Positions 13,986 through 61,555 of a stretch of 64,000 nt of DNA are shown piece by piece; the stretch's first letter is position 1; every line of letters begins with the position of its first letter. Below the pieces are notes generated by a model, which had not been told where the DNA came from, did no database searches, and was given only the letters and a program-made list of their open reading frames with translations. The translations under genes and the position numbers were made by a program. The stretch lies in the NCBI RefSeq assembly GCF_963921235.1, contig NC_086097.1, forward strand, positions 75,456,001 through 75,520,000, in the 5' to 3' direction. This DNA is from Mobula hypostoma (Eukaryota).

Positions 13986-14424
13986 CCAACCTGATGGCGT
14001 GAACATGGACTTCTCTAACTTCCACTAATGCCCCACCTCCCCCTCGTACCCCATCCGTTATTTATTTTTATACACACATTCTTTCTCTCACTCTCCTTTT
14101 TCTCCCTCTGTCCCTCTCACTATACCCCTTGCCCATCCTCTGGGTTCTGCCCCCCCACCCTTGTCTTTCTCCCTGGGCCTTCTGTCCCATGATCCTCTCA
14201 TATCCCCCTTGCCAATCACCTGTCCAGCTCTTGGCTCCATCCCTCTCCCTCCTGTGTCTTCTCCTATCATTTTGGTTCTCCCCCTCCCCCTCCCACTTTC
14301 AAATCTCTTACTAACTCTTCCTTCAGTTAGTCCTGACGAAGAGTCTCGGCCTGAAACGTCGACTGTACCTCTTCCTACAGATGCTGCCTGGCCTGCTGCG
14401 TTCACCAGCAACTTTGATGTGTGT
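13986..14424 (+). mobile_element. Penelope 3'/pLTR insertion inside the L1
   Basis: Flanked by 8-bp TSD tacttgct (13978-13985, 14425-14432). Removing it restores the L1 frame (VTKAS|TCLIELFRK). Starts in the GIY-YIG C-terminus (QPDGVNMDFSNF). Hammerhead at 14329-14364. Confidence 0.92.
14329..14364 (+). ncRNA. minimal type I hammerhead ribozyme
   Basis: AGUC-CUGACGA-AGA(GUCUCGG)CCU-GAAA-C-GUC-GACU. One mismatch in helix II. Confidence 0.7.
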
Positions 14425-22130: not shown

Positions 22131-22139
22131 CAAACAAGT

Positions 22140-25100: not shown

Positions 25101-25680
25101 GGCTTGTGATCCATTAGCACTGACAGCTTAGCGTCGCCAAGGCCGGGCAAGGAGAGCAACTGTTTGGTGCACTCAGGCTCCAATAGCCCTGAAGTCTATA
25201 AAAGGTGAGTTTTCCATGATCAGTGCTTATCGTGTTCAGACGAGTGTTCAAGTAGACTCACCACTCTCACAGCTGTGGAACTGCTGAGTGACACTACCAC
25301 GTGGTTGGATTTGGTGTCATCGGCTGTGACTTCTCGCAGAACAAATTGGGCCTCATCCTGTACAAACCAACTGACTGCATTTAGCTCCCAAAACTCCAGC
25401 AGTTTCAAAACGACATATTCAATAATTCTGGAATCGTCTGAGAGTATCAGGGTCACCAAAAGCAGGGTTTCACCAATAAAACAAAGTGAAGCATTTTATA
25501 TTTAACCCGTAACACATTTCATTGAATTCCAAACCCTACACAAAAAAGCATGCTAAAAAAATCTTTACTTAATAACAACATCGTGTCAGACCAGCCTCTT
25601 AAAGTGAAACCCCATCTCAATATTGGCGGTTGTGAATTACAGTATGCATGTACATTTCTCCCATTTACGTGACCCTCCCA
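22140..25680 (-). mobile_element. decayed Ty3/Gypsy element (CsRN1-like), 3'-truncated
   Basis: PBS tggtgaccctga at 25458-25447. Gag LKLLEFW..WFVQDEAQF, CFYY knuckle remnant, protease FLCDMGAQVS, RT YLDDIL, RNase H TTDAS/DRELL, integrase DLVGPLP/QSNGL. Probable 5' LTR about 25462-25680. Confidence 0.88.
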
Positions 25681-28183: not shown

Positions 28184-31100
28184 CTCTCTTTAAATCTTTT
28201 TATTGAGTAAGTATACAAAAAAGGTAAGCCATATAAACATTAATACAATGTTAAAGTATAATAAAATTCCAAAAGATAACAATACCAAAAAGAAAATACT
28301 ACAAACAATGTAATTTAAGCATAAGAAACCAAGATAACATAATAGTATACTAGATTTTATATATATCAATGGAAAAAAAGAAAAAAAAACCCCAAAAAAA
28401 AAACCCACCGTGCAACTAACTAAAAGCAAAGCAAAGCAATGGGCTAACTTGAAACCAAACAGAGTTAAACTTAAAATCACGTCCTCAATCCCGACCTCCA
28501 TTAAAACAGTGAAGAAAAAACAAGAAGGGTAAATATTACATTAAATGAAAATATCGAATAAAAGGTCCCCAAATCTGTTCAAATTTAAATGAAGAATCAT
28601 AAAGGTTACTTCTAATTTTCTCCAGATTCAAACATAAAATCGTCTGAGAAAACCAAAAAAAGGTAGTTGGAGCATTAAGCTCTTTCCAATGTTGTAAAAT
28701 ACATCTTTTCGCCATTAAAGTAAGAAATGCAATCATTCTACGGGCTGAAGGGGAAAGATTACTAGAAATTTTAGGTAGTCCAAAGATAGCAGTAATAGGG
28801 TGAGGAGAGATATCTATATTTAATACCTTAGAAATAATATTGAAAATATCTCTCCAAAAAGTTTCCAAAGTAGGGCAAGACCAAAACATATGAGTTAAAG
28901 AGGCTATCTGCCCCGAACATCTATCACAGAAAGGATTAATATGCGAGTAAAAACGCGCTAACTTATCTTTGGACATATGTGCTCTATGAACCACTTTAAA
29001 TTGAATTAGGGAATGTTTAGCACAAATAGAGGAAGTATTAACTAATTGTAAAATCTGCCCCCAATCATCCACAGAAATGGTAAGCCCCAATTCCTGTTCC
29101 CAATCTACCCTAATCTTATCAAATGGAGCTTTCCTAAGTTTCATAATAATATTATAAATCATAGCCGATGCACCTTTCTGACATGGATTAAGGTTAATTA
29201 TCGAATCTAAAATATATATAGGAGGAAGCATTGGAAAGGAAGTAAGTATAGTACTTAGGAAATTTCTAACTTGTAAATATCTAAAAAAATGTATTCTTGA
29301 TAAGTTATATTTGTTAGATAATTGTTCAAAAGACATAAGGGAACCATCTAAAAATAAATCCAAAAACCGTAAAATACCCTTAGTCTTCCAAGTTTGAAAA
29401 GCGCGATCCGTAAAAGAGGGAGGAAAAAATATGTTACCTAAAATAGGAATCGCTAACCCGAATTGATTAAGATCAAAAAATTTTCTGAATTGAAACCAAA
29501 TGCGCAAAGCATATTTAACTATCGGGTTAGAGACCTGCTTAAGACGTTTCGAATCAAAAGGAAGAGAGGAACCTAAAATAGAACCAAGTGTATAACCCTG
29601 AACAGATTGTAATTCCAATGCTACCCATTTAGGAATAAATAGTATGTCCCGATCAAGTAACCAAAATTTCATATGTCGAATATTAATAGCCCAATAATAA
29701 AATCTAAAGTTAGGTAATGCTAAACCTCCATCTCTCTTAGCTTTCTGTAAATGTATTTTACCCAGTCTCGGATTCTTGTTCTGCCAAATAAATGAAGAAA
29801 TTTTAGAGTCAACTTTATCAAAAAAAGATTTAGGAACGAAAATTGGTAATGCCTGAAACACATATAAAAATTTTGGCAAAAAAAACATCTTAACTGCATT
29901 AATACGACCAATCAAAGTTAAATATAAGGGAAACCATTTAGATGAAAGTTGAGTAATATGGTCTATTAATGGTAAAAAGTTAGTCTTAAATAAATCTTTA
30001 TGTTTACAAGTAATTTTAATCCCAAGATATGAAAAGTAATTATTAATCAATTTAAATGGAAATTTATAATATAAGGGAAGATGTTTATTAATCGGAAAAA
30101 GTTCACTCTTACTAAGATTTAATTTATAACCTGAGAAAAGACCAAATTGTGCTAATAACTCTAAAACAGCAGGAATGGATCTCTCAGGATTAGAAATATA
30201 TAAAAGTAAATCATCAGCATAGAGTGATAATTTATGGGACTTTAATCCCCGAGTTATCCCAGTAATATTTAAAGATTCTCGAATAGCAATTGCAAGAGGT
30301 TCTAATGCAATATCAAATAATAGGGGACTAAGAGGACAGCCTTGTCGAGTACCACGAAAGAGAGGAAAAAAAGGTGAGTTTAAGGAGTTAGTACGAACCG
30401 AGGCTACAGGGGAGTAATATAACAGTTTAATCCAGGATATAAATTTCAAGCTAAAATTAAACATTTCAAGCACCTTAAATAAATAAGGCCATTCTACTCT
30501 ATCAAAAGCTTTCTCGGCATCTAAAGAAATAACACACTCAGGAACATTTTGTGAGGGAGTATAAACGATATTTAACAATGTACGAATATTATAAAAAGAG
30601 TAACGACCTTTAATAAAACCCGTTTGGTCTTCCGAAATAATAGAAGGAAGTACTTTTTCTAGTCTATTTGCTAATAACTTAGAAAAAACTTTAGAATCAA
30701 CATTTAATAAAGATATTGGTCTATAAGATGCACATTGAGCAGGGTCTTTATCCTTCTTTAGTATTAAAGAAATTGATGCTCTATTAAAAGATTCCGGAAG
30801 TTTACCAAGTTTCAAAGAAGCCTCAAAAACCTTATAGAGCCAAGGAATCAATAAAGAAGCAAAACATTTATAAAATTCAACGGTAAACCCATCAGGGCCA
30901 GGAGCTTTCCCCAGATTCATAGAAAAAATAACATTCTTAATCTCATCCATTGTAATGGAAGTATCTAATAAAGAAGACATATCCTGTGAAATCAGAGGGA
31001 AGTCTAACTTATCTAAAAAATCATTCATATATTTAGAATCTCGAGGAGACTCTGATTGGTATAAAGAAGAATAAAAATCACAAAAGGTTTGATTAATCCC

Positions 31101-32896
31101 CACATGATCCAATATCAATCGATCATTTTGGTTATAAATCTGATTGATTTGAGATTTAACATAATTAGATTTCAATTGATTAGCCAGCAGCTTGCCAATT
31201 TTATCACTGTGAACATAAAAATCACTTCTTGTTTTCTTTAATTGGTTTACAATCGAGGACGAGAGTAGTAAACTGTGTTCCATTTGAAGTTCAGTTCTTT
31301 GTTTGTATAGCTCCTCAGAAGGAGCCATAACATATTTCTTATCAATTTCTTTAATCTTGTCCACAATTACCATCTCCTCCTGCTTCTGTTTCTTCCTCAA
31401 AGCAACGGAATACGAAATAATCTGACCCCGAATATAGGCTTTAAAAGTGTCCCAAAGAGTGTTAACCGAAATATCTTCTGTATGGTTAATTGTAAAAAAA
31501 AGCTCAATCTGTTCATTCATAAAATTAACAAAGTCCGAGTCCTGAAGCAACAGCGAATTAAAACGCCATTGTCTATTGTTTGGTATATTGGCCATAATTT
31601 TAATAGAAAGCTTAAGTGGAGCATGATCCGAAATGGTTATAGAATCATAATCACATTTAATCACTGAAGAAATGAGACGAGAATCAATGAAAAAATAATC
31701 AATTCTTGAATAGGAATGATGAACATGTGAAAAGAAGGAAAAATCTTTTTCCTGAGGATGCAGAAAACGCCAAATGTCCGTCGACCCAGAATCAGAAAGG
31801 AAAAAATTAATCAAATTTGCAGATTTATTAGGTAAAGTCCGTAAAGGAGCCGAACGGTCCAAAGCTGGAGATAAACAGGTATTAAGATCTCCGCCCCAAA
31901 TCAATGAAAACTCGTTCAAATTCGGAAACTGATCAAACAATGATTTATAAAATTCCGGACAATCCATATTAGGAGCATAAACATTAACCAAAACTACTTT
32001 TTTATTAAATAATAAACCACTAACCAATAAAAATCTACCATTCGGATCAGAGATAATATCCTGTTGTATAAAAGTAACTGAGGAGTCTATAAAGATAGAG
32101 ACGCCTCGAATCTTAGCATTGGAGTTCGAATGAAATTGTTGTCCCTTCCAAAATTTGAAAAAACGTAGTCTGTCCCCCCTCCGTACATGGGTCTCTTGTA
32201 AAAATAAAATTTGTGCTTTAAGTCTCCGGAACACTTTAAAAACTTTTTTCCTTTTAATAGGATGATTAAGACCATTAGTATTCCAGGAGACAAAATTAAT
32301 AATAGACTCCATAAATCCTAAAGTCAACCCATAACAAAGAGGATTGACAATAGGCGCGACCCACAGACCCGGAGAGGAAACAGAACATACAAAAGATACC
32401 GGGGAAAAGGACGTAACCAATACTTCAATAATGTATATAGCCCAAAGAGAAACAAACTAAAACGTGAAGCCCCTCCCACCGCCCCCCACCCCAGGACCCC
32501 AAGGCGAAATCTAAAGCAGACCCGCCAGAAGGAAGCAAGCGCTAAAACTACCCCCATGACTTCCGGTATACGCTCCCTAAAAAAAAGGTATAAATATGAA
32601 AAAGGATCAGCTAATTGTAAAACAGTAAAAAAAATAAGTAAAAAAAAGTTAACTCAATTAAAATACACACAGAACAGAACAAAAGCCGGAAAGTATATAT
32701 TAAAAAAAACCACAATAAACCTCAAACTCATGAATAGACACAGCAACAAAAAAAATAGGATTATTAACATAAAATGATTATAAAAAGCAAAACAGAATAA
32801 AATTTAAAAAAAACTACAAAATTTAAGGCCGCACAGGAAATACGTAAGATGACAAAAGGGAAGTAACCACCCAGAATCCCCTGGGAAAAGAAAGAA
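28184..32896 (-). mobile_element. young 5'-truncated L1-clade LINE
   Basis: 14-bp TSD acaattcaatttcc (28170-28183, 32897-32910). Intact ORF2. 3' UTR with aataaa. No ORF1 inside the TSD-bounded unit. Confidence 0.95.
28536..32312 (-). CDS. L1 ORF2 protein (APE endonuclease, reverse transcriptase, Cys/His domain), 1258 aa
   Basis: Uninterrupted ORF: SWNTNG, FLQETH, NVYAPN, GGDLN, SRIDY, SDH; KAPGPDG, YRPISLLN, DAEKAFD, RQGCPLSP, YADD; CDRC...HMFWSC. The ATG at 32312 lies just before the APE domain. Confidence 0.95.
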   Translation of the reverse strand: MESIINFVSWNTNGLNHPIKRKKVFKVFRRLKAQILFLQETHVRRGDRLRFFKFWKGQQFHSNSNAKIRGVSIFIDSSVTFIQQDIISDPNGRFLLVSGLLFNKKVVLVNVYAPNMDCPEFYKSLFDQFPNLNEFSLIWGGDLNTCLSPALDRSAPLRTLPNKSANLINFFLSDSGSTDIWRFLHPQEKDFSFFSHVHHSYSRIDYFFIDSRLISSVIKCDYDSITISDHAPLKLSIKIMANIPNNRQWRFNSLLLQDSDFVNFMNEQIELFFTINHTEDISVNTLWDTFKAYIRGQIISYSVALRKKQKQEEMVIVDKIKEIDKKYVMAPSEELYKQRTELQMEHSLLLSSSIVNQLKKTRSDFYVHSDKIGKLLANQLKSNYVKSQINQIYNQNDRLILDHVGINQTFCDFYSSLYQSESPRDSKYMNDFLDKLDFPLISQDMSSLLDTSITMDEIKNVIFSMNLGKAPGPDGFTVEFYKCFASLLIPWLYKVFEASLKLGKLPESFNRASISLILKKDKDPAQCASYRPISLLNVDSKVFSKLLANRLEKVLPSIISEDQTGFIKGRYSFYNIRTLLNIVYTPSQNVPECVISLDAEKAFDRVEWPYLFKVLEMFNFSLKFISWIKLLYYSPVASVRTNSLNSPFFPLFRGTRQGCPLSPLLFDIALEPLAIAIRESLNITGITRGLKSHKLSLYADDLLLYISNPERSIPAVLELLAQFGLFSGYKLNLSKSELFPINKHLPLYYKFPFKLINNYFSYLGIKITCKHKDLFKTNFLPLIDHITQLSSKWFPLYLTLIGRINAVKMFFLPKFLYVFQALPIFVPKSFFDKVDSKISSFIWQNKNPRLGKIHLQKAKRDGGLALPNFRFYYWAINIRHMKFWLLDRDILFIPKWVALELQSVQGYTLGSILGSSLPFDSKRLKQVSNPIVKYALRIWFQFRKFFDLNQFGLAIPILGNIFFPPSFTDRAFQTWKTKGILRFLDLFLDGSLMSFEQLSNKYNLSRIHFFRYLQVRNFLSTILTSFPMLPPIYILDSIINLNPCQKGASAMIYNIIMKLRKAPFDKIRVDWEQELGLTISVDDWGQILQLVNTSSICAKHSLIQFKVVHRAHMSKDKLARFYSHINPFCDRCSGQIASLTHMFWSCPTLETFWRDIFNIISKVLNIDISPHPITAIFGLPKISSNLSPSARRMIAFLTLMAKRCILQHWKELNAPTTFFWFSQTILCLNLEKIRSNLYDSSFKFEQIWGPFIRYFHLM

Positions 32897-34025: not shown

Positions 34026-34881
34026 TGGCCATGCAAGTAGAAAGAAGCCAACTTGCACCTACTAAGCTTGTCTTAGTGTGAGTCAAAGCAGACTCTGGGA
34101 CCAAACCTCGGATCCTGGGAACCAACTCAGTGAAAGCCACCAAAGTAGTTTATTTATCCAGCTCTTGCCTGGGTGTCCCACCATGTTTCATAGAAATGAC
34201 ACGAAATCACACTTCCAAATTCACAAAGCTCCCACCCATTGATCTGCAGCTCTACTTCTTCTCAAGAAGTGTCCACAAATTGTCCACCCAGTGATCATAC
34301 CTCTGGAATACCATGCCGACCAAATGTCAACCCCAGCCACAGGAAATGATCTCACTTCTCATATGCTGAACCCACCCAGTCTGCTGACTGGGTGGGCAAA
34401 TACTGATTTCCACCCAGACTGCAGTTGGAGATTCAAAAATTGTCTCATATTTCAATCAATAATCACAGCCACTCTTCTCAGCTACCCACTCACATCTCCC
34501 AAATACTGAATCTCATCCAGACTGCAGAATCTTGATCGTACTGTTAGGGCATTTTTGGGGATAGGAAGTAAAGCAAATATCGACTTCAGCGAACAACCTT
34601 CTGATCTGAATATGCATTGAAGATTAAATCTAAAGTGCATCTCTGAACAATGGTTAGACAACGCTGATTTAAACTTGTTATTTGTGTGTATTTGGGTGTC
34701 TGTAGTATGGTTGCAAAGGAGGGAGATGTGAAAGGCGTGTGTAGTTCAAAGGAAACATTGTAAATATGGATTGTTTAAATTGTCCTGAATTTTTCTTTGA
34801 TCTTTAGCACATAAAATGATGTGTAAAGCTGGGCCAAGCAGACCATTTCTACTGAAAGGTTCTCAATAAGGTGCCTGCTGT

Positions 34882-34978
34882 TAGTCCTGACGAAGGGTCT
34901 CTGCCTGAAACGTCGACTGTACCTCTTCCTAGAGATGCTGCCTGGCCTGCTGCGTTCACCAGCAACTTTGATGTGTGT
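34882..34978 (+). mobile_element. 97-bp Penelope pLTR mini-insertion
   Basis: Near-identical to 46640-46735. Flanked by tgcctgctgt (34872-34881) / tgcctgttgt (34979-34988), a 9/10 match TSD. Confidence 0.85.
34883..34918 (+). ncRNA. minimal type I hammerhead ribozyme
   Basis: AGUC-CUGACGA-AGG(GUCUCUG)CCU-GAAA-C-GUC-GACU. All core nucleotides and helices I and II are intact; predicted cleavage after 34914. Confidence 0.8.
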
Positions 34979-35977
34979 TGCCTGTTGTATATTGTTTTTG
35001 GCGAATAAAGAGGCGGCTTCATAGCTACCAGTACTTTTCTCCGGTGACTTCATTCATGCAACAACACGGAACCCCCTGAATGTCAACCTTTCCCATTTGG
35101 CTGCTGGTCTCATCCCCCAGGATACTCCATGTATCAAGTGCTGCATGCAACCCCTCGAAACCTATTCCAAATTCTGATTCAGATCTGCTGAATACTGGCC
35201 AACCGCACTTGACTACTTATAAACATCTGTAATCAAGCCTATCCCAAAACTGCTGCCCAACCACTGACACAAACAGCTAAACCTAACACTCAAACCCCTT
35301 TCTATTTCTCTCTTTCACTAGCCACTCCCCACTCTTGTCATGCAACTACAGTCTACTGGTGCCCCATGCTAAACTTCCTGAATCTGTTATTCTCCAAGGA
35401 TTTTCTGTTTCAACCTCAAGGATTGTTTATTGCTCCTTTCCAGTAATTGACCAATTTTTAGTGAGTCTTTCATCTCACTTTCATTATGAATTGTAATATG
35501 ATTCAGCGATGTGGAGATATTCAATTCTATGATACACTTCAGTTAAAAAGGGCAGCTTTAACTTAATGGGATGATTGATTACTTTGCTGCACTCTACTTC
35601 TTGATCCAATCAGTATTTGCAGAAAGGAATTGTTTTTATTATATCAATTTTCTAAAATCTAATATAATGTTGAAGCCTGATTGGTTGATAAGTGGATATT
35701 ACAGTATTGTCATGTTCTCTTTTGTGGACTAAAGTCAACAAGTAACATTGAATAGTATGAATTGCCTGTAGCTCTTTCAAGCTATGTTTTACAAGAGCTT
35801 GCTGAACAGATATAAGTGAAATAGATGGCAGAAGAGTACACCTGGTTCGTGACTTATTAGCACGAGAAGTAGAGGTTATTCAGTGTGAAGCTGTCAATGT
35901 TGATATTTTCTCTTCAGTAGAACAAAGAAGAACCTGGAAGTGAAACAAGAATTAATTTTGGTTTCAGTTGGGATTTA

Positions 35978-41751: not shown

Positions 41752-43267
41752 TGTCATGGTCTGGTCTGTGAAGTCAGCATTCCGGTTCACGGTTCGATCC
41801 GTGGACTCAGGACCTTCCAGCTGTCCCTCATTTGGTTGAGTTTATCAGAGACACCTGATTCTCATCTTTGGGCTTGGAATATAAGTAGCCTTGGGGTTGA
41901 ATGTGAGTGGCTGGTTTGTCTTGTCAGTTCTTCTGGGAGCAACCTGCTGGTGGAAGGCTAGAGCGGCCACTTGTCATCTTTAGGCTGTGCTGGAGAACCA
42001 TTGCTTCATGGAGCCTTGCCTTCGGTGATTGGAGCTGTCTCTGCGGTATAGGTTTGGCTATTTCCTGGGCCAGCTGAATGGCTGCCAGCCACTCCAAGCT
42101 AGGTAGGGATCCAACTGTTTCTGTAGCCAGCTGAGGTTGCTGGCTGAACTGAGTCTCGGAGCTTCCCTGGAGCAGACATGGAACTATCTGTTGTTCTTTG
42201 GTGTTTGTCTCTTCTTGTCCTCATCTCTGTGGGGTAAGCCAGGCCATTTTGCTGTTGCCCTGTGGGGGGATCTGTCTTGTCTTGTCCTTGCCTCTGTTGG
42301 GTAAGTCCGGGTGTTCTGCTGTTACCTGACGGAGGGACCCGTCCCACTTTGGTGTGGAGATGAAGTTGAGTCCTGGCTTGTCTTAGGATAAATCCTGGCT
42401 CTATATTTATGCTCTGTCCTGTCTCATGTTAGTGTCGTGTTAAAGATGAGTCCCGGCTTGTCGAAGGATAAATCCTGGCTCTATGTTGATGTTTGGTTAC
42501 CAGTCTGTCTCTGAGCCCCAAGGCCCCAAGCCTCGAGGATCCCGGGGCCAGGCCCCAAGGCCCCAAGCCTCGAGGATCCCGGGGCCAGGCCCCAAGGCCC
42601 CAAGCCTCGAGGATCCCGGGGCCAGGCCCCAAGGCCCCAAGCCTCGAGGATCCCGGGGCCAGGCCCCAAGGCCCCAAGCCTCGAGGATCCCGGGGCCAGG
42701 CCCCAAGGCCCCAAGCCTCGAGGATCCCGGGGCCAGGCCCCAAAGCCCCAAGCCTCGAGGATCCCGGGGCCAGGCCCCAAGGCCCCAAGCCTCGAGGATC
42801 CCGGGGCCAGGCCCCAAGGCCCCAAGCCTCGAGGATCCCGGGGCCAGGCCCCAAGGCCCCAAGCCTCGAGGATCCCGGGGCCAGGCCCCAAGGCCCCAAG
42901 CCTCGAGGATCCCGGGGCCAGGCCCCAAGGCCCCAAGCCACGAGGATCCCGCAGTCAAGCTCAGACCTCTAGACCCCAGCCACATCCTGTCCTGAAGCCA
43001 TGTCATGTCCTTGCCTGGTTCTGGGGTCTGAGCCCGAGGCAAGACCCAGGTTCTGGGTCCTTGTTCAACCTCAGGCTCGGAGTCCAAGTCTTGCCTCCTG
43101 GTCTAGGGTTCCTAGTCCTGGTCCCGCTTTCCCTAGCCCAAGTCTGCGCTCTTGTCCCTGCTCCTGGTCTGAATCTTGTCACGTCCCTACACTAGCCAAG
43201 TCCTGTTCCTTGTACTTCAGTGTCTGTGTCTCTCATTTGGGTCCGTTCCCAGCACTCCATTGTGACA
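41752..43267 (+). mobile_element. solo LTR (Gypsy-type)
   Basis: tgtca...tgaca termini and 5-bp TSD tatat (41747-41751, 43268-43272). Both ends are homologous to the LTRs at 59083 and 60461. TATA-like tataag near 41880. Confidence 0.85.
42515..42951. repeat. 37-bp GC-rich minisatellite, about 11.8 copies
   Basis: Unit gccccaaggccccaagcctcgaggatcccggggccag. Only two substitutions were seen across the array. Confidence 0.97.
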
Positions 43268-45439
43268 TATATATATTATATTTTGAATTTTAATTGCTGA
43301 TTACATTTAAAAATATTCATATGCTTGCTCCTAAGTGATGCAAATTATCGTACCTCAAACCTATCTGTAAGGTAGCATCTCTTTCCTCAATCCCAATTGA
43401 ATTATTTTTTAAAAGATCAGTATATAAAATGTTAAATCTCTTTGGAAGTAAGGAATAGCAGAAGAGTTTTGGAGGGGAAATGGGGCTCTGGCCTCTTGGA
43501 AAGGGAAGCTACAAGGAAAAGTAGCTGGTAGACGAGATAAATTTCTGTAGTATGAGACAGAACAATGATGGAGTGTAGAGGTGAGGTGATTGTGATCTCG
43601 AGCATTTGCCTTGGATTTTCTGGCCCTTTGAGGATAAGATTCCATATATCTCTCCACTCAGAGCTCTGGTATAAAACCCAAAAATATTGGAAATTATTCT
43701 CCTCTTTGCTCCATTAATCTTCAGTGTGTGTCAGGTCAAACTTGCTTCCAACGAGACTGGCAGCAACTCCTCAGGCTGCAGGGCATCTCCTTACTACATG
43801 CTACTGGCTGGCAGTCAGTTGTAGCAAGACATAACTGGAGCTGGCAAGTCAACTTTCTGGTACCTCATTTATTCTAGTAACCACTTTTTGGCTGATGAAC
43901 TCAGTGAAATAAGTAGGTAGTACAAGCTTATAGATAGCCTTTTCAGGATTTTCCTTTTAGTTTAGCTCGACAGCGTCCTGAGACAGCTACTATTCAACAT
44001 ACACACCCAAATTTTCAGATCATCACAGATTGAGATTGAATTTTTATATGCTATTCTATTTACAAGATATTTAAATGGTCTGTGATTTGAATATACAATG
44101 AAACATGAAAATGTTTGTACTGTTGATGTAGAAATGGTGGTCATGGTAATGGAGTTGCCATGGTTACCACCGGTGGATACTGATGATGAATAGGTGCTTC
44201 TTTTGTTTCTAAAATATTTTTAAATTGGTGAACTGCTGTGAAGAAAATAGTTCTGTCTACATTATCATTTTGTCTGTGTTAAGATATTTAAACTAAACAA
44301 AACAGATGGCATGTTGAGTATTATAAAAGATGCATTTACTGTAAAATTCTTAACAAAGCAAATATGAAGTAAAGGTATTCCTATCTACTGTTAGATATTG
44401 TTTTCATAGAACATGTTTAGTTCCCCAGCACATTGAGGACCCTGCACTTCTTGATGCTAATGCTTGCTGGGATTACAGTTATGATGTATAGTTTTCCTGC
44501 AAATCAATCAATGGTTTGATTGGTTAAATCATTATCAGACCCACTGAATTTCACTTCACCATTTTTTGTTGGGATTTGCTTCAAGATTCATAAAATAGAA
44601 TATATTATTCTCTATAACTGTCCTATAAATCAAGAGAATATATTAAACATCAATGAATACTTTATATATACTGCAGAGGGAAGAAAAATTGGGATTTCAC
44701 CTAAATGGAAGGTCTCCGATTGTCTACTTGAATCCATATAATATATTAATTTGGAAATTGTATCCATAGGCCTCTTTAGTGCCTCCTGGCATGATATAAT
44801 GAAGTGGTTCACTTCTATCCTTGACAGCCTCTTGTCATGACAACACAGAACATCTTGAATAGACAAGATGGACAAGATATTAGCTCTGTTGGGTTGAGTG
44901 AGTGTATTCCAAGGTTAAAGATCTTTAATTTGGCAAGCACTAATTTAAATTACAAAAATAAATGGTGAAGTGAACTTCACTGAACCTGATATTGTGTGAA
45001 GTAATCTTACAGGATGTTGGATTGCTTTAAAAACCTAAACAACTGACAAATAACAGGGAAGGGAACATGGCTGGGCCATCATGCAGCTCTAGAACCAGGC
45101 AACGTGGATTAACATTATCTGACAAATGACTTATTAAATCTGTAAGTATTTTCTTGGCATTGTAGTTCACAGAGCTGGAACAGAAGTAAAAATAAACTTA
45201 CAATCAAGGAGCTTTCAGTGTTCACCAAGATATTTAAAAACGGGACCATTTCCTTCCAGCTACACAAACTAAGATCTAATATAATCATCAATTTATTCAC
45301 ACATTAAAGGCACAGACTTATAATTCTGCAATAGGCAGCAGTGGTCTGATTCCTCTTTCATTTCAGATGTGATTTTTCTCTTCATAAAGTAATTCTTACA
45401 ATAGCAATTGTGAAGATCTCATTTTACTATTAAAATGGG

Positions 45440-45750
45440 CACAACTCAAGGATGTGTGCTTAGCCCACTGCTCTACTCTCTCTACAGTCATATCATACAT
45501 AACTTTGCAGAAGACTCCACTGTTGTTGGCAGAATCTCAAATGATAACAAGGAGGCATACTGGAATGAGATAGGTTGGCTGATTAAGTGATGTCACAATA
45601 ACTGCCTCACATGTAATATCTGGAAGTCCAAAGAAACTGATTGTGGCCTTCAGGAAGGGGTAGTCTAGAGCACACACACTAATCTTCACTGTGGGGCCAA
45701 CGGTGGAAAGAGTGAACTGCTTCAAGTCCCTTGTCATCAACATGCACTGG
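45440..45750 (+). mobile_element. Rex1/Babar RT fragment
   Basis: GTTQGCVLSPLLYSLY and VERVNCFKSL motifs. Confidence 0.7.
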
Positions 45751-46130
45751 AGAAGCAATGGCAGAAGGAATCAACGCAAGACCCCTTGGTCACTCGCGAT
45801 GTTAGTGATCAAATGTTTGGACACCAGTCTTCTAAAGATGTGTACTGTGATGAAAACAAGTAGTACAATTCCCTAAGTGCCAGAATTTCTTGCTGAGAGT
45901 TTCCTGTTTCTAACTTCTTCTCTGTTGATTTCTCACTGTGGATATTACTTAATGTGCTTACGCTGCAATTACCTTAAATCAGTGATACACACTATTGATC
46001 ATATTTTACAGTGATAGTCATAGGGACATAGTAAATAGCAGGAGTAGGCCATTCAGCCCCAATAAGATCACAGCTGCTCTACCTGTACCAAGGACATATC
46101 CCTTAATATTCAAAATTACATCAATTACTG

Positions 46131-46774
46131 AACACCTATGCTCTGTCCGCCAGAGAAAGCAGGATCTCCCAGTAGCCACCCATTTTAATTCCATGTCCCA
46201 TTCCCATTCTGATATGTCTATCCACGGCCTCCTCTACTGTAAAGATGAAGCTACACTCAGGTTGGAGGAACAACACCTTATATTCCGTCTGGGTAGCCTC
46301 CAACCTGATGGCATGAACATCGACTTCTCTAACTTCCGCTAATGCCCCACCTTCCCCTCGTACCCCATCCATTATTTATTTATATATACACATTCTTTTT
46401 CTCTCTCTCCTTTTTCTCCCTCTGTCCCTCTCACTATACCCCTTGCCCATCCTCTGGGTTTCCCCCCCTCCCCTTTTTCTTTCTCCCTGGGCCTCCTGTC
46501 CCATGATCCTCTCATATCCCTTTTGCCAATCACCTGTCCAGCTCTTGGCTCCATCCCTCCCCCTCCTGTCTTCTCCTATCATTTTGGATCTCCCCCTCTC
46601 CCTCCCACTTTCAAATCTCTTACTAACTTTTCCTTCAGTTAGTCCTGACGAAGGGTCTCGGCCTGAAACGTCGACTGTACCTCTTCCTAGAGATGCTGCC
46701 TGGCCTGCTGCGTTCACCAGCAACTTTGTGTGTTGCTTGAATTTCCAGCAACTGCAGAATTCCTCGTGTTTGCG
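46131..46774 (+). mobile_element. Penelope-like element 3' portion (GIY-YIG C-terminus plus pLTR)
   Basis: 10-bp TSD tcaattactg (46121-46130, 46775-46784). Encodes EHLCSV..PVATHFN..H..RLEEQHLIFRLGSLQPDGMN up to the stop at 46342. Pyrimidine-rich UTR, then hammerhead. Confidence 0.92.
46641..46676 (+). ncRNA. minimal type I hammerhead ribozyme
   Basis: AGUC-CUGACGA-AGG(GUCUCGG)CCU-GAAA-C-GUC-GACU. Intact core with palindromic ACGU helix III; predicted cleavage after 46672. Confidence 0.82.
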
Positions 46775-47384
46775 TCAATTACTGTCTTGATTTTTCCTGG
46801 TGATGGTATTTCACAACCTTCTTGAGAAAAGATTCCAAAGACTCCTATCCCTTTGAGTGAAGAAATAACTTCTCATTTCACTCTTGTTTAGCCAAGCCAT
46901 TATTTTTAACACTAACCAAGCAAAATATTATGCCTGCATTCACTTTGTGAAGCCCTTTAATACATTTGTATGTTGCAATATGTCCACCTGTTTATTCTCT
47001 CCTTGAAAGACGGTTCCTCTGGCTAGGAATCAAATGCTTTATTGCACTCCCTTTCCTACCCATTCCCTTCCTTGAGTAAGAAGACCAAACCTGTGCTCAC
47101 TGCTACTGGTGTAGGTTCAGCAGCATCCTATGTCGTTGTGGCTAGATAGCTTTGTTTTTGTATTCAAATTCCTCCCCCACCCCCCAGCCTCCATGTTAAG
47201 GGCCAATTCAACTCTTGCCTTCCTAAATGCTTGCAGATAATTTTTAGTGATTAATGTATAAGAACACCCAGATACCCTTGAATATCCACACGTTTTGCCT
47301 TCTCTCTATTACAAAATACTCAGCTTTTCAATTTTATTCAACCAAACTAAATATTGTCATGTTTTTCCACACTGTGGGATACGG

Positions 47385-50900: not shown

Positions 50901-52931
50901 GATATAATTTTTTAAAGAGAAGTGAAAATACATTTATTAAAAAGAAGTAGTTATCAAAATGGGAGAGAAGTAAATGGCTCCCAGCTGCAAAGAGCCATCT
51001 GTGTTGTAAAATTCGATGATTCCATGAACACAATTCTGGTTCTATCAAACTCCAGAAAAATTATCACTCTTAATATAACTTTATGCTGGAGGGAAACATC
51101 TTCTCATCATGATTTCATTCTTATTCAAAAGCCTGGTTAAGCACTGCATACATTTCCTTTCTCTACATCTTTGCCTGGAGTATCATACACAAGGCCCATG
51201 GCAAATAATGGGCCTGCTGTATAATCTGATATTGGCCTGATGCTGTTGCAATGCTCATCTAAGGGGAGGGAGAAAGAGGTGAGTAGAGGAGTGCCTACCA
51301 GAGAAGTAACTTGAGAATGTACCACACAGTGTATCTATCGTCCTACAGATGTATATATGTATGTGTAATTTTCCTGTAAGCTCAAAAATTTGCAGGTGTC
51401 CTTCAGATCCTAAATAGAGTCTGAACAAACCCTGCAGCGAGTCTTATGGTGTAAGATAAGAACTGTAGCATATTGCATGAGCAAATGACTAAATAAAATG
51501 GTTCTGTTGCAAAAGCTGGTTCCAGTATTTTTCAGTAAATTTCTGTATCTTAACAACGATAAAAAAAATTTGAAACATCCCTAGTAATTTAGCATAATTC
51601 TTTCCATATTCCTACTGAATTAATTGGACGTAACATGCAAGAAAATCACTAAGTATTACAATTGATGAATTATCTAGATTTATTCTCACCATTATGGAGG
51701 TGAATTTTTGCTGTCTGCTTGCCTTTGATGATCAAAATTTTCTGTTATTGTTCAATCAACTGTTTAAAGCTCCAAAAGAGGTCAAAAAGACTTTTTTTTC
51801 AGAAGCCTCATTATCCTCAGTGCTTTTAAGATGATACTTTCCTGTGGTTTGCTAATCTTTCAGGTGTCTGGATAAGAGTATTACAAATATATAAGGTATT
51901 TCATATCATAAACATTGTATGAGTAATGCAAAAATTAGTGAATAAAGGCTGTGTTAGGTTTCTAAGGGAGATCATTTTACATTTACTAAAAGAAGAAAGG
52001 CTTAAGTTTTCAGAACAATCAGATCTTGGTGTCTTCAGGGTTATTACAGAAGCAATGTGATTGTAATAAAAATTGTCATCCTGCTGAGCATATTCGGATC
52101 ATGAACAATGTTCCCAGTTATGTGCTGGAGCTTCAGTCACTTCGAGTGTATTGGTTCGAATTGACTCCACTCTATTAGACACTAAAGGAAAGGAGATAAA
52201 ATAGATCTTAATGAATAGTGGTCTTTAGGCGTAGGGGTTCCAAAGAATACTACGTTATGTGTATCCATGTCACCATCGAGCAGAAATCAATGGCAGCACT
52301 CTCACTACTTAGTCAGAAGGTTTAAAGTGCTTCTCTGCCTGACGCTTTATTCAATGAATCACCTGGTCCCGATGGATTAATCGCTTGGTTGCTGAGTGAT
52401 GGTTTGATAGAAATAGCAGAAGCTCTCTTCACAATCCTCCAATTATCCTAAAATGTTGGCAGAGGGTTGCCAAATAATTGCAGAAATACAAATAGTACAC
52501 CAGTCATCATGTAATAGGGAAAGCATCTGGGAACCGAAGATCAGTTTAAGATCCTGGTGATGAAGGTGCCAGAAGCTATTGAACTATTGTCAAGGGCAAA
52601 TTAATTGGAATAAAATTTGTCAGACGTTACTTACAGGTAAATGACCAATTCCTTGCAATTAAGAGAGAAAATTGATGAAAGTTAATAGAACAGATGCTAG
52701 AATTTCATAGGACATTTGATTTATGTTTCTAATAATAACTTGACACAGAAAATTGGAAATCATAAAACTGGAGATGTGGAAAGTCCGACATTTTTAAAAA
52801 GTGCTGGGAACACTGAAGGGGTCAGTCAGCATCTGTAGAAAGAGAAACGGTGTTAATGTTTCAGCTCAAAAGCTCTGTCAAAACTGGGAAAGAGAGAAGG
52901 CAAGTTTGTTTTGATGGGCAAAAGGGAATAT

Positions 52932-53217
52932 TGTGGAGACCCACTTTCCAGCGCACTCGAACTGGCTCACAAAATGGCGCACACCGGCAGAGAGGTTGGC
53001 CCCAAAAAGGGTGCCAGGCCATCTTCACCAGCGGGGAGAAAAACCCGCGTGTGGGAAGGGTCTGCGAATATGCGTTCCCCACAGCAGTCTCGCCCAAGGA
53101 AAGCGGGAATGGGAAGGCTTTAAAGGAGGCTGTGAAGTTTGAATAAACCTTTTTTCACAACTACAACTCACTGACTACGTGTCGTTATTCTAACGCTGTG
53201 TGTAGCACATCGCTACA
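52932..53217 (+). repeat. 5' LTR (286 bp)
   Basis: tgtggagac...cgctaca with aataaa. About 40 substitutions versus the 3' LTR by manual count. Confidence 0.95.
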
Positions 53218-53219
53218 TT

Positions 53220-53233
53220 TGGTAACCCCGACG
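53220..53233 (+). promoter_or_regulatory. primer binding site, tRNA-Trp
   Basis: tggtaaccccgacg, 2 nt after the LTR; one mismatch to the tRNA-Trp PBS tggtgaccccgacg. Confidence 0.85.
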
Positions 53234-53257
53234 GCCCAATCGATATTTGGACCAGAG

Positions 53258-53961
53258 ATGACCGACGCCGCATCTGTTCATGCAGTTTTGTTAAAACTGT
53301 CAAGCTTCTGGATGCTGCAACCTCACCTATGGTTTGGACAAGCAGAAGCCCAATTCCACATTTGGCAGGTAACCTTGCATTCCACTTATTACTACTACAT
53401 GGTGAGCTCCCTCGACCAGGAGACAGCTGCACAAGTTGAGGAGTTTATACAGTCACCCCAGGAGGACAGCAAGTACACAGCATTCAAAGCCCTGCTCATA
53501 AGGATTTTGGACTCTCACAGCGCGAGCGAGCTGCCTGTTTACTGCACCTGGATGGTTTGGGAGACAGGCCGCCATCGGCATTAATGAACGAAACACTGGC
53601 CCTGGCTGAAGGACACAAACCCTGCCTCATTTTTGAGCAGGCGTTCCTACAGCAGCTGCCCGAGGACATATGCCTGCTGCTGTCCGACGCAGATTTCAGC
53701 AACCCCCGGAAGGTGGCAGCCCAGGCAGATGTGCTGTGGAATGCCAAGAAGGAGAGAGGGGCGTCCGTTGCACAGATCACCAAGCTGCGTGCCCAAAGGC
53801 AGACCAGACCAGGCCCGGCAGCAGAGCCGACAAAACCCGGTGACGGGAGTGAGGAGCCCAATGAACAATGGTGCTTCTACCACCAGCGGTGGGGCACAGA
53901 GGCCCACAGCTGTAGACAGCCCTGCAAATTCCTGGGAAACGCCAGGGCCAGCCGCCGCTGA
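53258..53961 (+). pseudogene. gag (frameshifted)
   Basis: MTDAASVHAVLLKLSSFW..WFGQAEAQF; LGDRPPSALM; CFYHQRWGTEAHSCRQPC. Confidence 0.9.
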
Positions 53962-53979
53962 TGGCTACGGTGGCTGGCC
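53934..53979 (+). promoter_or_regulatory. programmed -1 ribosomal frameshift signal (gag-pol)
   Basis: In-frame slippery heptamer G GGA AAC (53934-53940), 5-nt spacer, 12-bp stem ggccagccgccg / cggtggctggcc (53946-53957 / 53968-53979). Pol is in the -1 frame and open from the slip site. Confidence 0.8.
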
Positions 53980-56900
53980 ATCAGGACAGCCTCCTGTATG
54001 TCTGGGACAAGCAGTCGGGACGCTGCTTTTTGGTTGACACTGGAGCGGAGATCAGCGTTTTACCTCCAACGAATTACGACACCCGCAACAGAGAACTGGG
54101 ACCCACCCTGAGCACTATAAATGGCAGCACAATACGGACCTATGGCACCCGCACGGTGCAGCTACAGTTCAGCTCCAGCCAGTTCACGTGGGACTTCACA
54201 CTGGCCGCCGTGGCCCAACCACTCCTGGGGGGGGGGGTGGATTTTCTGCGAGCTCACAGCCTGCTGGTCGACTTGCAAGGGAAGTGACTAGTCCACGCCA
54301 AGACTTTTCAAACGTTCTCCCTGGGTGAAGCCAAGTTGCCAGCCCCACACCTGGACTCCATCATGCTGTCCGATAATGAATTCACCAGGATCCTGATGAA
54401 TTTCCCATCAGTTCTGACACCGCAGTTCACGGCAGCCATGCCCAGACACAGAGTACAGCACCACATCCTGAGCCAGGGACCACCCCTCCACGCCCGTGCT
54501 CGAAGGCTTCCCCAGAACAAGCTCCGACTGGCGAAGGAGGGGTTCAAGAAGATGGAGGAATTGGGGATCATACAACAGTCCGACAGCCCATGCCCTGCAC
54601 ATGATGCCCAAGGTAACGGGGTGCTGGAGACCATGCGACGACTATCGCAGACTGAATGTGGCTACAATGCCAGACCGCTACCCTGTGCCGCACATTCAAG
54701 ACTTTGCAGCAAACCTACACGGTGCAAGGATCTTTTCCAAGGTAGACCTCATCCGGGGATACCATCAAATCCTGGTACATATGGACGACATCCCCAAAAC
54801 AGCACTCATCACCCCGTTCGGCCTTTTTGAATTCCTCCAAATGCCATTTGGCCTAAAGAATGCCGCACAGACGTCCCAGCGGCTAATGGACGCGGTGGGA
54901 TGCGACCTGGACTTTGCATTCATCTATTTGTACGACATCCTCATAGCCAGCAGTAGTCGTCAGGAGCATCTGTCCCACCTCCGTCAATCTACGCCCAACT
55001 GAGCGAATTCGGCCTTACAATTAATCCGGCCAGATGCCAGTTCAGACTGGATACCATCGACTTCCTGAGCCACAGGATTACTAAAGACAGGGCAACCCCT
55101 CTGCCCACCAAGGTAGACACAGTCTGCCACTTCCCCCGACCCAACACAGTCAAAGGCCTGCAGGAATTCGTGGGTATGGTGAAGTTCTACCACCGTTTCC
55201 TCCCCTCAGCAGCCCAAACCATGCGCCCCCTGTTCACTCTAATGTCGGGTAAGGGCAAGGACATTACCTGGGACGAAGAGGCCGCAACCGCTTTTGTTAA
55301 AACCAAAGAAGCCTTGGCAAACACCGCGATGCTAGTGCACCCCAGAATGGACATTCCTACTGCCCTCACGGTGGATGCATCCAACACAGAGGTCGGTAGA
55401 GTGCTGGAACAACTCATTGAGGGTCGCTGGCAACCTCTGGCGTTCTTCAGCAAACACCTACGACCACCTGAACTCAAATACAGTGCTTTCGACCGGGAGC
55501 TATTGGCACTATACCTGGCAATCTGGCATTTCAGGTACTTCTTAGAAGGTAGGCCCTTCACCACGTTCACGGACCACAAACCGCTTACCTTTGCGTTCAC
55601 TAAGGTGTCCGATCCCTGGTCGTCCCAACAGCAGCGACATCTGTCCTACATCTCCGAATACACAACAGACATCCGGCATGTCTCGGGAAAGGACAACATC
55701 GTGTTGGACGCATTATCCAGACCTACCATACAGGCCCTGTCCCAGGGGGTGGACTATGCAGCGCTGGCAGAGGCACAGCAGGCAGACACTGAGATCCCTA
55801 GTTACAGAGCTGCGGTCTCCAGTTTACAGCTCCAAGACCTCCCCGTAGGCCCAGGTGAGAGGACCCTTCTGTGTGACGTAGCAAGCGGCCAACCCCGCCC
55901 CATCGTCCCGGCAGCCTGACAGCGGCAAGTTTTCAACCATTTACAACTTAGCACACCCCTCCATCAGGACAACCGTCCGGCTCGTCTCCAACAGATTCGT
56001 GTGGCATGGACTTCGTAAACAGGTCAGTGAATGGGCCAAAACGTGCATGCAGTGCCAAACGGCCAAGGTACAGCGGCACACCAAGGCTCCACCACAGCAG
56101 TTCAATCCCACCTGCCAGAGGTTCAACCACATTCATGTGGATATCGTGGGGCCCCTGCCAGTGTCACGAAGAGCGTGGTACCTCCTAACTATCGTAGACC
56201 GGTTCACCAGATGGTCAGAGGCAGTCCCGCTCACTGACACCACCTCCAAATCCTGCGCCCGAGCACTGATTGCAACCTGGATAGCCTGCTTCGGGGTACC
56301 AGCCCACATTACCTCCGACAGCGGTGCCCAGTTCACCTCCAGCCTGTGGTCGGCTATGGCCAACCTTTTAGGAACACAGCTACACCACACAACTGCCTAC
56401 CACCCACAGTCGAACGGACTAGTGGAGCGTTTCCACCGTCACCTGAAATCGGCTCTCATGGCCCACCTGGAGGGGCCTAACTCTGTGGACGAACTTCCCT
56501 GAGTCCTGCTTGGAATCCGCACGGCACCCAAAGAGGATCTACACACCTCGTCGGCTGAGTTGGTGTACAGTGCACCCCTGGTAGTCCCAGGAGAGTTCAT
56601 ACCAGCCCCAAGGGGGCAAGAGGAGGAACCCACAGCAGTCCTGGACAGACTACGTGAGAGGCTCAGTAACCTGGCCCCCATACCCACTTCACAGCACGGA
56701 CAGAGCCCGACCTGCGTACCCAAAGACATGCAGAACTCTAAGTTTCTTTCTGTACGACAGGACGGACACCGGGCACCGCTACAGCGGCCCTATGAGGGGC
56801 CGTTTAAGGTGACCAGGAATAACGGGTCCACGTTCGTGCTGGACATTGGGGGGAGAGAGGAGGTTTTCATGGTGGACCAACTCAAACCAGCCCACGTGGA

Positions 56901-57000
56901 CTTGGCGCAACCGGTCCAGGCTTGGGCACCGCGGCGCAGAGGCAGACCTCCCAAACAGAGGCCGATCCAGACTGTGGACATTGGGGGATGTATCGCCAGT
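53940..57000 (+). pseudogene. pol (protease, RT, RNase H, integrase), disrupted
   Basis: LVDTGAEIS; DYRRLN, MPFGLKNA, YLYD (YLDD mutated); TVDASN, DRELLA, TDHKPL; HVDIVGP, TSDSGAQF, NGLVERFH; YEGPF. Confidence 0.93.
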
Positions 57001-57026
57001 TCTTGTGGGGGGGGGGGAGAGGGGTA

Positions 57027-57307
57027 TGTGGAGACCCACTTTCCAGTGCACTCGAACCGGCTCACAAAACGGCTAGCACTGGTAGAGAGGCCAGCCCCAA
57101 AAAGGGCGCCAGGCCATCTTCACCAGCAGGGGGAAAATCCCGCGCGCGGGAAGGGTCTACGAATATGTATTCCCCACAGTAGTCCCACCCGGGTAGGGCA
57201 GGAACAGGAAGGCTTTAAAGGAAGCCGCGAAGTTTGAATAAACCTTTTTTTCGCAACTCACCGACTAAGTGTCGTTATTCTAGTTCTGTGTGTAGCACAC
57301 CGCTACA
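57027..57307 (+). repeat. 3' LTR (281 bp), preceded by polypurine tract 57007-57024
   Basis: Direct repeat of 52932-53217, with a G-rich PPT immediately upstream. Confidence 0.95.
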
Positions 57308-59082: not shown

Positions 59083-61555
59083 TGTCATGGTCCGGTCCAT
59101 GAAGTCCCACTTCCCCCTTCCCCCTTCCCTCTTCCCACTCCCCCCTCACCTGCATCCCAGTCAAGTTCAACTGCCAGAGTGAGACTGGAGCCTTGCCACG
59201 CCAAGATAAGGGACTATCTATTGTTGAGTTTGGAACTATCTCTTTGTGTCCCCGTGTTTAGTGTTTGTGTCAAAGAAGAGTGCTGGCTGTAGGTCCTGTT
59301 CCCAAGGAGGGGTCCTGACTCTGTGTAAAGCCATGGCCCTAAGTCCTGTTCCCAAGGAGGGGTCCTGGCTCTGTGCCCTGTGTTCCTGTATTCCAAGTTC
59401 CAGGTGCCGTGTTCCAGTCCTGTCCAAGTCAAGGGTTTGTGTTCTCACCCAGCCCTGGAGTCCCTCTGCAGTTTACCTCGGCAAGTGTCCTCTGCAGTCA
59501 TCTCGGCCCTGCATCCTAGAAAGGGTCCTGGCCCTGTGCTCCAAGAAGGAGTCCTGGCTCTGTACCCAAGAGCCTAACCAACCCAAGTCCAAGAGCCTAG
59601 TCCTGCCCTGGAGTACCTTGTTTAGTCCACGTCCAAGGCTCTGTGTTCCAAGACCAAGTCCAGGTGCCGGGTTCCAGTCCTGTCCAAATCTGAGCGTCGT
59701 GTGCTCATCTAGTTCCAGTGCCTCGCCCAGTCCAGGAGTTCCTCGCCTAGCCCAGTGCTGGTGTACCTCGTCCTATCCTTACCAAGATCCTAGTCTTGAG
59801 TCCTCACCTAAATCCAAGGTCCAAGCCTGAGTCAAGACCCAGGTTCCAGGCTCGGAGTCCTAGCCCAGGCTCCTAGTTCCAGTTCCTTGTCCTGGTCCTG
59901 CTTTCCTAGTCTTAGTCCTAGCCCAGGCCCGGTGTCCTTGTCTCGTCCAGGGCCTGTGTCAATGTCCAGCGTCGTTTCTTCCCTTGCTTTCTTGACAAAC
60001 CTAGTCCTGTTCCTAGTAACACATCAAAGTTGCTGGTGAACGCAGCAGGCCAGGCAGCATCTCTAGGAAGAGGTACAGTTGATGATTCAGGCTGAGGACG
60101 AAGGGTCTCAGCCTGAAACATCGACTGCACCTCTTCCTACAGATGCTGCCTGGCCTGCTGCGTTCACCAGCAACTTTGATGTGTGTTGCTTGAATTTCCA
60201 GCATCTGCAGAATTCCTGTTGTTCCTGTTCCTAGTACTCCAGTGTCTGTGTACTGCATGTGGGTCCACTCCCAACTTCCCCCTTGTGACAGAATAGTCCA
60301 GTCAAATATGGGCCCAGTGACACAGACACTGTCGTTTTACTCTCACCATCCTGGGTTCCCTCCTGTTGAATACCCCCCCCCCACTGCACCTGCCCGGGTC
60401 GTGCATAGTCCAGAAAGCCTGTTAGGTCGCCAGGAGGCTCCCATAGAGGGGAGGGGATACTGTCATGGTCCGGTCTGTGAAGTCTGCATTCTGGTTCACA
60501 GTCCAGTCCGTTGATTCCTTATTCCCGGTTTTCTTGTTTTCCCTTGTTCCATTGGGTGCCTTAATTGGGGCACCTGATTCTCATTGTGGGCTGGCACATA
60601 AATACCTCTCAATCAGGGATTCTCTGTTGGACTGTTCCCTTCCCCTTCCTTCTGAATCCTTGCCTGCATCTCCATCAAGTTCAACTGCCAGAGTGAGACC
60701 GGAGCCTTGCCACACCAAGATAGGAACTATCTATCAGTGAGTTTGGAACTATCTGTGTCCCTGTTTTTAGTGTCTGTGTCAAAGAGTCATGGCCGTAGAT
60801 CCTGTTCCCAAGGGGGTGGGGTCCTGGCTCTGTTCTGTGTTCCAAATTCCAGGGTCCATGTTCCAGTCCTGTCCAAGTCAAAGCTTCATGTTCTTGCCCA
60901 GCCCAGGAGTCCCCTCACCCGTTTACCTTGATAAGTGTCCTTGGCAGTCATCCTGGTCCTGCATCCTAGAAAGGGTCCTGGCCCTATGCTACAAGGAGGA
61001 GTCCTGTCTCTGTACCCAAGAGCCTAACCAAACCTAGTCCAAGAGCCTCGTCCTGCCCTGGAGTACCTCGTCCAGTCCACGTCCAAGGCTCTGTGTTCCT
61101 GTGATCCAAGACCAAGTCCAGGCGCCGTGTTTCAGCCCTGTCCAAATCTGAGCTTTGTGTCCTCATCTAGTTCTGGTGCCTTGCCCAGCCCAGTGCTGGG
61201 GTACCTCGTCCTGTGCTAGGGTACCTCATCCTGTCCTTGCCAAGATCCTAGTCCCGAGTCCTTGCCTAGATCTGGGGTCTAAGCCCGAGTCAAGGTTCTG
61301 GGTCCCTGTCCAGTCTGTGGCTTGGAGTCCTGGCACAGACTCCTAGTTCCAAATTCCTTGTCCAGGTCCCACTTTCCTAGTCTTAGTCCTAGCCCAGGCC
61401 CAGTGTCCTTGTCTCATCCAGGGCCTGTGTCAATGTCCAGCGTCGTTTCTTCCCTTGCTTTCTTGACAAACCTAGTCCTGTTCCTAGTACTTCAGTGTCT
61501 GTGTACTGCATGTGGGTCCACTCCCAACTCCTCCCCCCCCCCCCACCTTATGACA
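59083..61555 (+). mobile_element. non-autonomous LTR element: LTR (59083-60290), 170-bp internal, LTR (60461-61555)
   Basis: 5-bp TSD gtgat (59078-59082, 61556-61560). Both LTRs run tgtca...tgaca and are homologous along their length. PPT agaggggagggga lies before the 3' LTR. Confidence 0.92.
60019..60222. mobile_element. Penelope pLTR foldback insertion in the 5' LTR
   Basis: 78-bp inverted arms (60019-60096 / 60107-60184). 14-bp TSD tcctgttcctagta (60005-60018, 60223-60236). The empty site is in the sister LTR at 61476-61489. Confidence 0.93.

Follow-up and report, generated by a model that had tools for sequence, protein, structure and literature searches.

The 64,000 nucleotides of Mobula hypostoma DNA analyzed here (the window, from contig NC_086097.1; all coordinates are counted from its first letter) contain several copies of a motif resembling a minimal hammerhead ribozyme, one of them near the end of a Penelope-like element (PLE). 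Do these scattered motifs act on the RNAs that contain them, or are they carried along by the transposon? A sequence-only reading of the window had proposed that transcripts with such copies could pair and cleave in cis or trans. The evidence points to the second answer. Very probably, the copies are 5′-truncated insertions of a highly amplified PLE, in which the hammerhead is a passenger of the terminal repeat (pLTR) and is most likely inert when solitary.

The focal insertion and its family

A perfect 10-bp direct repeat, TCAATTACTG, was found on the forward strand at 46121-46130 and again at 46775-46784. As this target-site duplication (TSD) flanks the element on both sides, the insert is 46131-46774 exactly, and the coordinates given by the sequence-only reading correspond to precisely one insertion. 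The TSD and the alignment of copies define it as a 5′-truncated PLE on the forward strand, composed of an ORF end, a pLTR and a 3′ tail. The C-terminal 70 aa of a GIY-YIG endonuclease with its stop codon (46341-46343) occupy 46130-46343 and are followed by a pyrimidine-rich 3′ segment of the terminal repeat (46344-46640), which is 93% identical to the copy at 13984-14430. The minimal type I hammerhead, recognized by the fit of its core and helices to the published consensus, spans 46641-46676 with a predicted cut after C46672; its start lies about 300 nt past the GIY-YIG stop, in agreement with the original description. The last ~35 nt (46740-46774) form the optional PLE 'tail' between two preferred 3′ ends, as judged from the ends of the copies.

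The 70-aa fragment matched 11 proteins, 10 of which bear ray or skate names, and the best match (P0002) is 94% identical. Scanned against Pfam by itself, the fragment gave zero matches; GIY-YIG (PF01541) was matched by four of seven homologs scanned, with E values of 0.0005-0.002, just below the curated cut-off. The identity to P0002 and these four homologs together identify the C-terminal GIY-YIG endonuclease typical of EN+ PLEs. Upstream, the homologs carry YIDD-type reverse transcriptase (RT) motifs, with no Pfam RT match, and a CX4CxxC linker; the combination of a CX2-5CxxC linker with CCHH was present in the five homologs aligned. The window copies are truncated: the window holds neither RT nor linker of this PLE family, no intact PLE ORF and no complete element in which a direct pLTR-ORF-pLTR partial tandem could be seen, and the fragment retains only the two histidines of CCHH.

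In the part of PMC8557442 available, the Neptune and Nematis clades are distinguished by a CX2-5CxxC linker that joins RT and EN and that Penelope/Poseidon elements lack. Since the homologs bear this linker, the family is likely Neptune-type, the clade being assigned through homologs 79-94% identical to the fragment; for the same reason, the linker-free Penelope/Poseidon type does not fit. The likeness to Neptune/Nematis includes the C-terminal GIY-YIG domain and two cysteines between its motifs in close homologs, as well as partial copies, inverted partners and a tail (PMC8557442). Five ray or skate gene models named as host genes (P0004, P0007, P0008, P0010 and P0011) include the PLE endonuclease in frame, owing either to exonization or to annotation contamination.

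The family is clearly very abundant by contig depth, a measure that gives no copy number. Summed depth over the element reached ~3-10 million in run X1 (again, not a copy number) versus ~14-28 in the unique flanks, and the ratio of element to flank depth was similar in run X5. In two runs presumed to be RNA, contigs extend over the element and not over the unique flank bins; they list no pile-up of starts or ends, a feature that contigs do not reveal, and are uninformative on this locus. In X5, from a second organism ~2% diverged, the points within the element where flank contigs stop coincide with those of X1; the contigs reach 26 and 23 letters into it, below the 31-letter bridging rule. The focal insertion seems to be common to this second organism and, being apparently shared, would have persisted with an intact motif in the Mobula genome. 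A piece of another high-copy repeat, apparently LINE-derived, is located nearby at 45438-45571, with a summed depth of ~225,000 in X1.

Copies across the window and how they may have arisen

Profile searching of the window with nhmmer gave 12 hits, six per strand. All copies named in the sequence-only reading (14329+, 34883+ and 7219-, with the broken 5833- and 60097+) were recovered. The search further yielded an inverted copy, 60015-60096(-), as well as five fainter hits (relics at 2509, 3049-3221, 9307 and 52802). The young truncated copy at 13984-14430(+) lies between LINE ORF fragments, has an 8-bp TSD and carries a hammerhead at 14329-14364 with an A·C mismatch in helix II. A young mini-copy at 34880-34984(+), with no TSD found, starts just 5′ of helix I and has an intact hammerhead at 34883-34918. 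Two reverse-strand copies belong to an older subfamily: the hammerhead of 7117-7559 (7219-7254) fits the descriptor defined below, and the core of 5766-6075 is broken at C3 and U4. At 60015-60223, two pLTR ends are inverted head to head and joined inside the hammerhead; the pair has a TSD of ~14 bp and both motifs are broken. Profile search and folding also revealed an old inverted pair of pLTR ends at 3049-3221 that has lost its hammerhead. Strongly decayed copies with broken cores were detected by profile search at 2509-2606(-) and 52802-52899(-), and, at 9307-9364(+), a faint trace of the sequence that follows the hammerhead (E 0.0004).

Of the seven insertions inspected, three had TSDs, which were 10, 8 and ~14 bp long; repeats of at least 7 bp occurred in five of 300 random pairs. 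For the ~14-bp TSD of the 60015-60223 pair, the empty site is preserved in a paralogous repeat at 61476-61489. The 3′ ends fall into two clusters 31-37 nt apart, with four of seven copies ending at the equivalents of 46737-46739 and three at those of 46770-46774. As this spacing matches the optional 30-40 bp tail described for PLEs (PMC3846280, PMC8557442), the segment between the clusters is interpreted as that tail. Inverted partner copies are likewise given as a PLE trait in the available parts of these papers. The window copies thus display the features of EN+ PLEs: 5′ truncation, TSDs, the optional tail and inverted partners.

In all seven copies that could be aligned, the sequence runs through the predicted cut site and continues 65-102 nt past it, so that their RNA templates were either uncut at the hammerhead or re-ligated. 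This observation tells against a dispersed RNA-processing layer, as do the equal numbers of copies on the two strands and the location of at least two insertions inside other repeats.

The 5′ ends of three of the five young copies (34880, 60096 and 60097, two of them from one event) lie in or just before the hammerhead. This suggests that the closed hairpin of the motif stalls reverse transcription or prompts template switching. If transcribed, the inverted pairs at 60015-60223 and 3049-3221 would give long dsRNA, with predicted energies of -157 and about -57 to -66 kcal/mol, respectively; such dsRNA is a possible substrate for editing or small-RNA pathways.

A route to these insertions can be proposed. 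The endonuclease of the element would nick the target, and the RT would initiate internally, either ~65 or ~100 nt past the hammerhead, as we infer from the two clusters of 3′ ends and from the analogy with an anole element. It would copy across the uncut hammerhead, which is therefore inherited by every copy, and would then stop early, leaving short copies with TSDs. Occasional template switching would account for the inverted partners, and the motif would subsequently decay, with CpG sites changing most. In the master element, cutting of a tandem precursor RNA by the motif would likely require either dimerization or the element's own protein.

The anole element, Poseidon PAc (Frangieh et al. 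2024, PMC11167929), resembles the window family in having a pLTR hammerhead upstream of two preferred 3′ ends, a tail of 30-40 nt between these ends, and copies made from uncleaved RNA. It differs in the linker, as homologs of the window family carry CX4CxxC and Penelope/Poseidon elements do not, and in that activity has been tested for PAc.

The hammerhead motif: letters, fold and decay

The motif at 46641-46676 consists of helix I (AGUC/GACU), CUGACGA with an extra A, helix II (GGGU/GCCU), GAAA and the palindrome ACGU. The motif had been correctly recognized in the sequence-only reading, but its helix II, drawn as AGG/CCU, is better replaced by the extra A and GGGU/GCCU with a G10.1·U11.1 wobble, in line with the CUGANGAH consensus. 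A loose core pattern matched the window 16 times versus 6.1 expected, a number reached in 0 of 100 shuffles. With a min-HHR descriptor composed of the core, the palindrome and a helix I of at least 3 pairs, four hits were obtained among eight core candidates; 200 simulated windows gave a mean of 0.005 and a maximum of 1.

The four copies share the min-HHR core (CUGANGAH...GAAA N N U H), and all have the palindrome and a 5-pair helix I; helix II has at least 4 pairs in three of them. The earlier count of four intact cores therefore holds for the core letters. Nevertheless, only two copies are mutually compatible, because the 14329 copy has a mismatch in helix II and the 7219 copy lies on the opposite strand and its palindrome, AUAU, is incompatible with ACGU. 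These two, 46641 and 34883, are 11,762 nt apart and are the only ones whose helix II can be complete and whose helix III sequences match each other.

Across eight window copies, 91% of helix cells pair, and two pairs show two-sided changes; 4 of 500 shuffles scored as high, a control that is not to be read as a probability. Such pairing, as read from the aligned copies, indicates constraint on the master elements at some time. The closing pair 10.1-11.1 is G·U in seven of the eight copies, unlike the G10.1-C11.1 of the published >80% consensus (PMC4209133). G·U was considered as a novelty and rejected, as it is present in the cichlid, coelacanth and Xenopus rows of the same paper.

The motif is the min-HHR described for metazoan PLE termini, and not a new system, going by the available part of PMC4209133. 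Shared features are the U-rich lead-in, a helix I of 4-5 bp, CUGANGAH with an extra nucleotide, G10.1, GAAA, palindromic 15.2/16.2 with no loop 3, and NUH. The setting is also shared: a 3′ terminal repeat after GIY-YIG, mostly solitary motifs on truncated copies, and opposite-strand pairs. Compared with the min-HHR of Schistosoma, helix II is shorter in the window (4 bp versus 7-8; PMC4209133). GIY-YIG homology, consensus fit and descriptor hits thus bear out the proposal of a PLE terminus with a dimer-type minimal type I hammerhead. The suggestion of an under-described system is not supported: thousands of mostly solitary motifs on truncated PLEs are already published, ~4,000 in coelacanth and ~9,000 in Xenopus (PMC4209133).

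The present family adds another abundant PLE hammerhead family to this class, described in 2014. There is no cartilaginous fish among the rows covered of Fig. S3 in PMC4209133, and no publication on this PLE family or on cartilaginous-fish Penelope hammerheads was found; the supplements of PMC4209133 and of a 2026 preprint on retrozymes (bioRxiv 10.64898/2026.07.22.740005) may hold one. Being very young and very numerous, the family offers power to test what PLE hammerheads are for.

The non-LTR retrozymes of the preprint also have type I hammerheads derived from PLE pLTRs, and one sampled chondrichthyan genome contains them, as far as the available text goes. Retrozymes are organized as tandem arrays, every unit of which has its own hammerhead, whereas the window copies are solitary or inverted and 11-20 kb apart, and no tandem head-to-tail hammerhead units were found in the 64-kb window. 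In run X1, joints 46677 -> 46641/46642 and 46669 -> 46630 were recorded at depths of 67-181, versus ~14-28 for single-copy sequence. Their orientation is not in the table, and joints at that likeness setting can be repeat artefacts; they may represent head-to-tail hammerhead duplications elsewhere in the genome, candidate cis dimers.

Among five matches of Rfam covariance models to the window at E up to 1, there was no hammerhead family, which is unsurprising since the motif lacks helix III. Matches to mir-789 and psbJ, located on the two inverted pairs, were far under the gathering score and were rejected. A 19-nt motif downstream of the hammerhead was found at 119 metagenome loci, alike only over 21-63 nt around the seed; the single locus that passed the upstream regex was unrelated sequence. 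Neither viral contigs nor prokaryote genomes contained a match to a 25-nt hammerhead pattern (0 hits in each), and the frame read through the hammerhead matched no protein at E up to 10 among six candidates.

In the best predicted fold of the monomer (-11.0 kcal/mol), G5-A6-C7-G8 are paired with the cleavage-site strand in a closed hairpin, and the hammerhead-type fold is predicted to make up ~0.06% of the ensemble. Within 140 nt of context, helix I is predicted for the 34883 copy only. A dimer joined by 4 bp alone was considered and rejected, as strands are also exchanged in helix I, which brings the intermolecular pairs to 14. The strand-swapped double hammerhead is predicted to lie 11.6 kcal/mol above two monomers, with the active dimer at 1e-11 to 1e-14 of the dimer ensemble. 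For two copies 11.8 kb apart, a simple polymer model gives an effective concentration of ~0.1-0.3 micromolar. Dimer formation at window spacings is thus predicted to be very unfavorable, by calculations that treat secondary structure without tertiary contacts, Mg2+, proteins or an active control and show direction, not rates.

Decay of the core at the flanking rate had been named beforehand as an outcome that would speak against a function. The motif has 8/158 differences in five young copies versus 6/311 just downstream (Fisher p 0.08, with the motif the more decayed); the 11 positions of the core have 1/47 (p 1.0). No conservation of the core beyond the flank is seen in this comparison, which has low power with five copies, two from one insertion event, and is compatible with modest constraint. 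Six of the eight differences sit at CpG. Between the 46641 and 14329 copies, 1/36 positions differ inside the motif and 22/360 outside (p 0.71), and the 7219 motif has five differences from that at 46641, all CpG-type transitions. None of the three young copies that span the core has lost a core letter; at a flank-like decay rate, three intact cores have a probability of 0.36. Among the 40 listed of 158 differences between the focal copy and the family, 15 fall in 46174-46629 and none in the hammerhead, which is unremarkable because only ~0.6 would be expected there (hand calculation). In this five-copy test, the window copies decay as ordinary repeats do, mostly at CpG. They differ in this respect from a cricket satellite, whose hammerhead is significantly more conserved than its flank (PMC2837043, in the part available); no such excess was seen in the PLE hammerheads of the window.

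Competing readings and the surrounding repeats

Of the alternatives, the one that survives best, though it is still unlikely, holds that the motif is not a ribozyme even in the master element and that the closed hairpin is a structural or promoter signal or an RT stall. It is consistent with the dominance of the closed hairpin in the predicted fold, with the G·U at 10.1-11.1 and with the starts of young copies at the motif, and the available part of PMC4209133 leaves non-cleavage roles of min-HHRs open. However, closure by G·U and the C7/CGUC combination both recur in published min-HHR families (PMC4209133), and the retention of every core letter in the three young copies argues in the same direction. 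This reading concerns the master element and is compatible with inert dispersed copies.

It is improbable that a latent motif is activated incidentally by the element's protein on transcribed copies, so that a few host RNAs are cut and selection limits the effect and does not use it. The hammerhead of PAc cleaves only with the element's protein, and is dispensable for insertion (PMC11167929); moreover, young copies in the window retain the downstream segment, the inferred RT start region. Against this, the PAc protein needed ~172 nt of RNA downstream (PMC11167929), more than the 65-102 nt left in the window copies, and the 64 kb contain no intact ORF from which the protein could come.

Slightly less probable again is the broader picture of a genome in which latent hammerheads, present in huge numbers, can be activated when neighboring copies pair or by element protein in trans, and so cut host pre-mRNAs or non-coding RNAs at many sites. 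Cleavage of host RNA by dispersed copies would be a new genome-wide route for transposons to shape transcripts; no sign of it was seen here.

The Schistosoma min-HHR is inactive as a monomer, and its dimer or trimer cleaves weakly but detectably in vitro (PMC4209133). Only one of nine Xenopus retrozyme dimers cleaved and eight did not; retrozyme copies bearing the hammerhead are underrepresented in Xenopus genes, a pattern more suggestive of tolerance or harm than of use (10.64898/2026.07.22.740005). In the part of PMC11167929 available, anole RNA-seq showed no ends at the cut site of the PAc hammerhead.

A host RNA-processing layer formed by dispersed copies pairing in cis or trans is accordingly the least credible reading: it can point to the very high abundance of the family, the presumed RNA contigs over the element, PLE sequence in gene models of related rays, the two compatible same-strand copies and the low in-vitro activity of dimers, but it is opposed by copies that span the cut site, by their even division between the strands and the position of at least two insertions within other repeats, by ordinary decay of the core, by the predicted scarcity of the active dimer at 11.8 kb, and by the anole and Xenopus data. 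Insertion of truncated PLE copies with an inert passenger motif is the reading retained.

The frames of the window were also surveyed for host genes. From a pool of 331 frames of at least 45 aa outside recognised repeats (588 in the whole window), the 202 stop-to-stop frames of at least 55 aa were scanned against Pfam together with nine repeat ORFs. Among these 211, only retroelement-associated domains scored above the curated cut-offs, in a scan that would miss short exons; four weak non-repeat hits were all under the cut-offs.

Other retroelements are present in the window. A 1306-aa open frame at 28536-32456(-), with endonuclease, reverse transcriptase and zf-RVT domains, is an apparently intact L1/Tx1-like LINE ORF2. 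Remnants of two LTR retrotransposons, both frameshifted and both containing RT and RNase H domains, lie at ~52900-57300(+) and 21900-25500(-), the former also showing integrase hits and direct repeats that are 83% alike (52932-53217 and 57027-57307). The inverted PLE pair at 60015-60223 is hosted by a ~900-bp direct repeat (59122-60018, 60223-60282 and 60637-61537), ~78% alike and possibly LTR-like. Kin of this repeat is found at 43007-43258, beside a tandem array of ~74-bp units (42515-42951).
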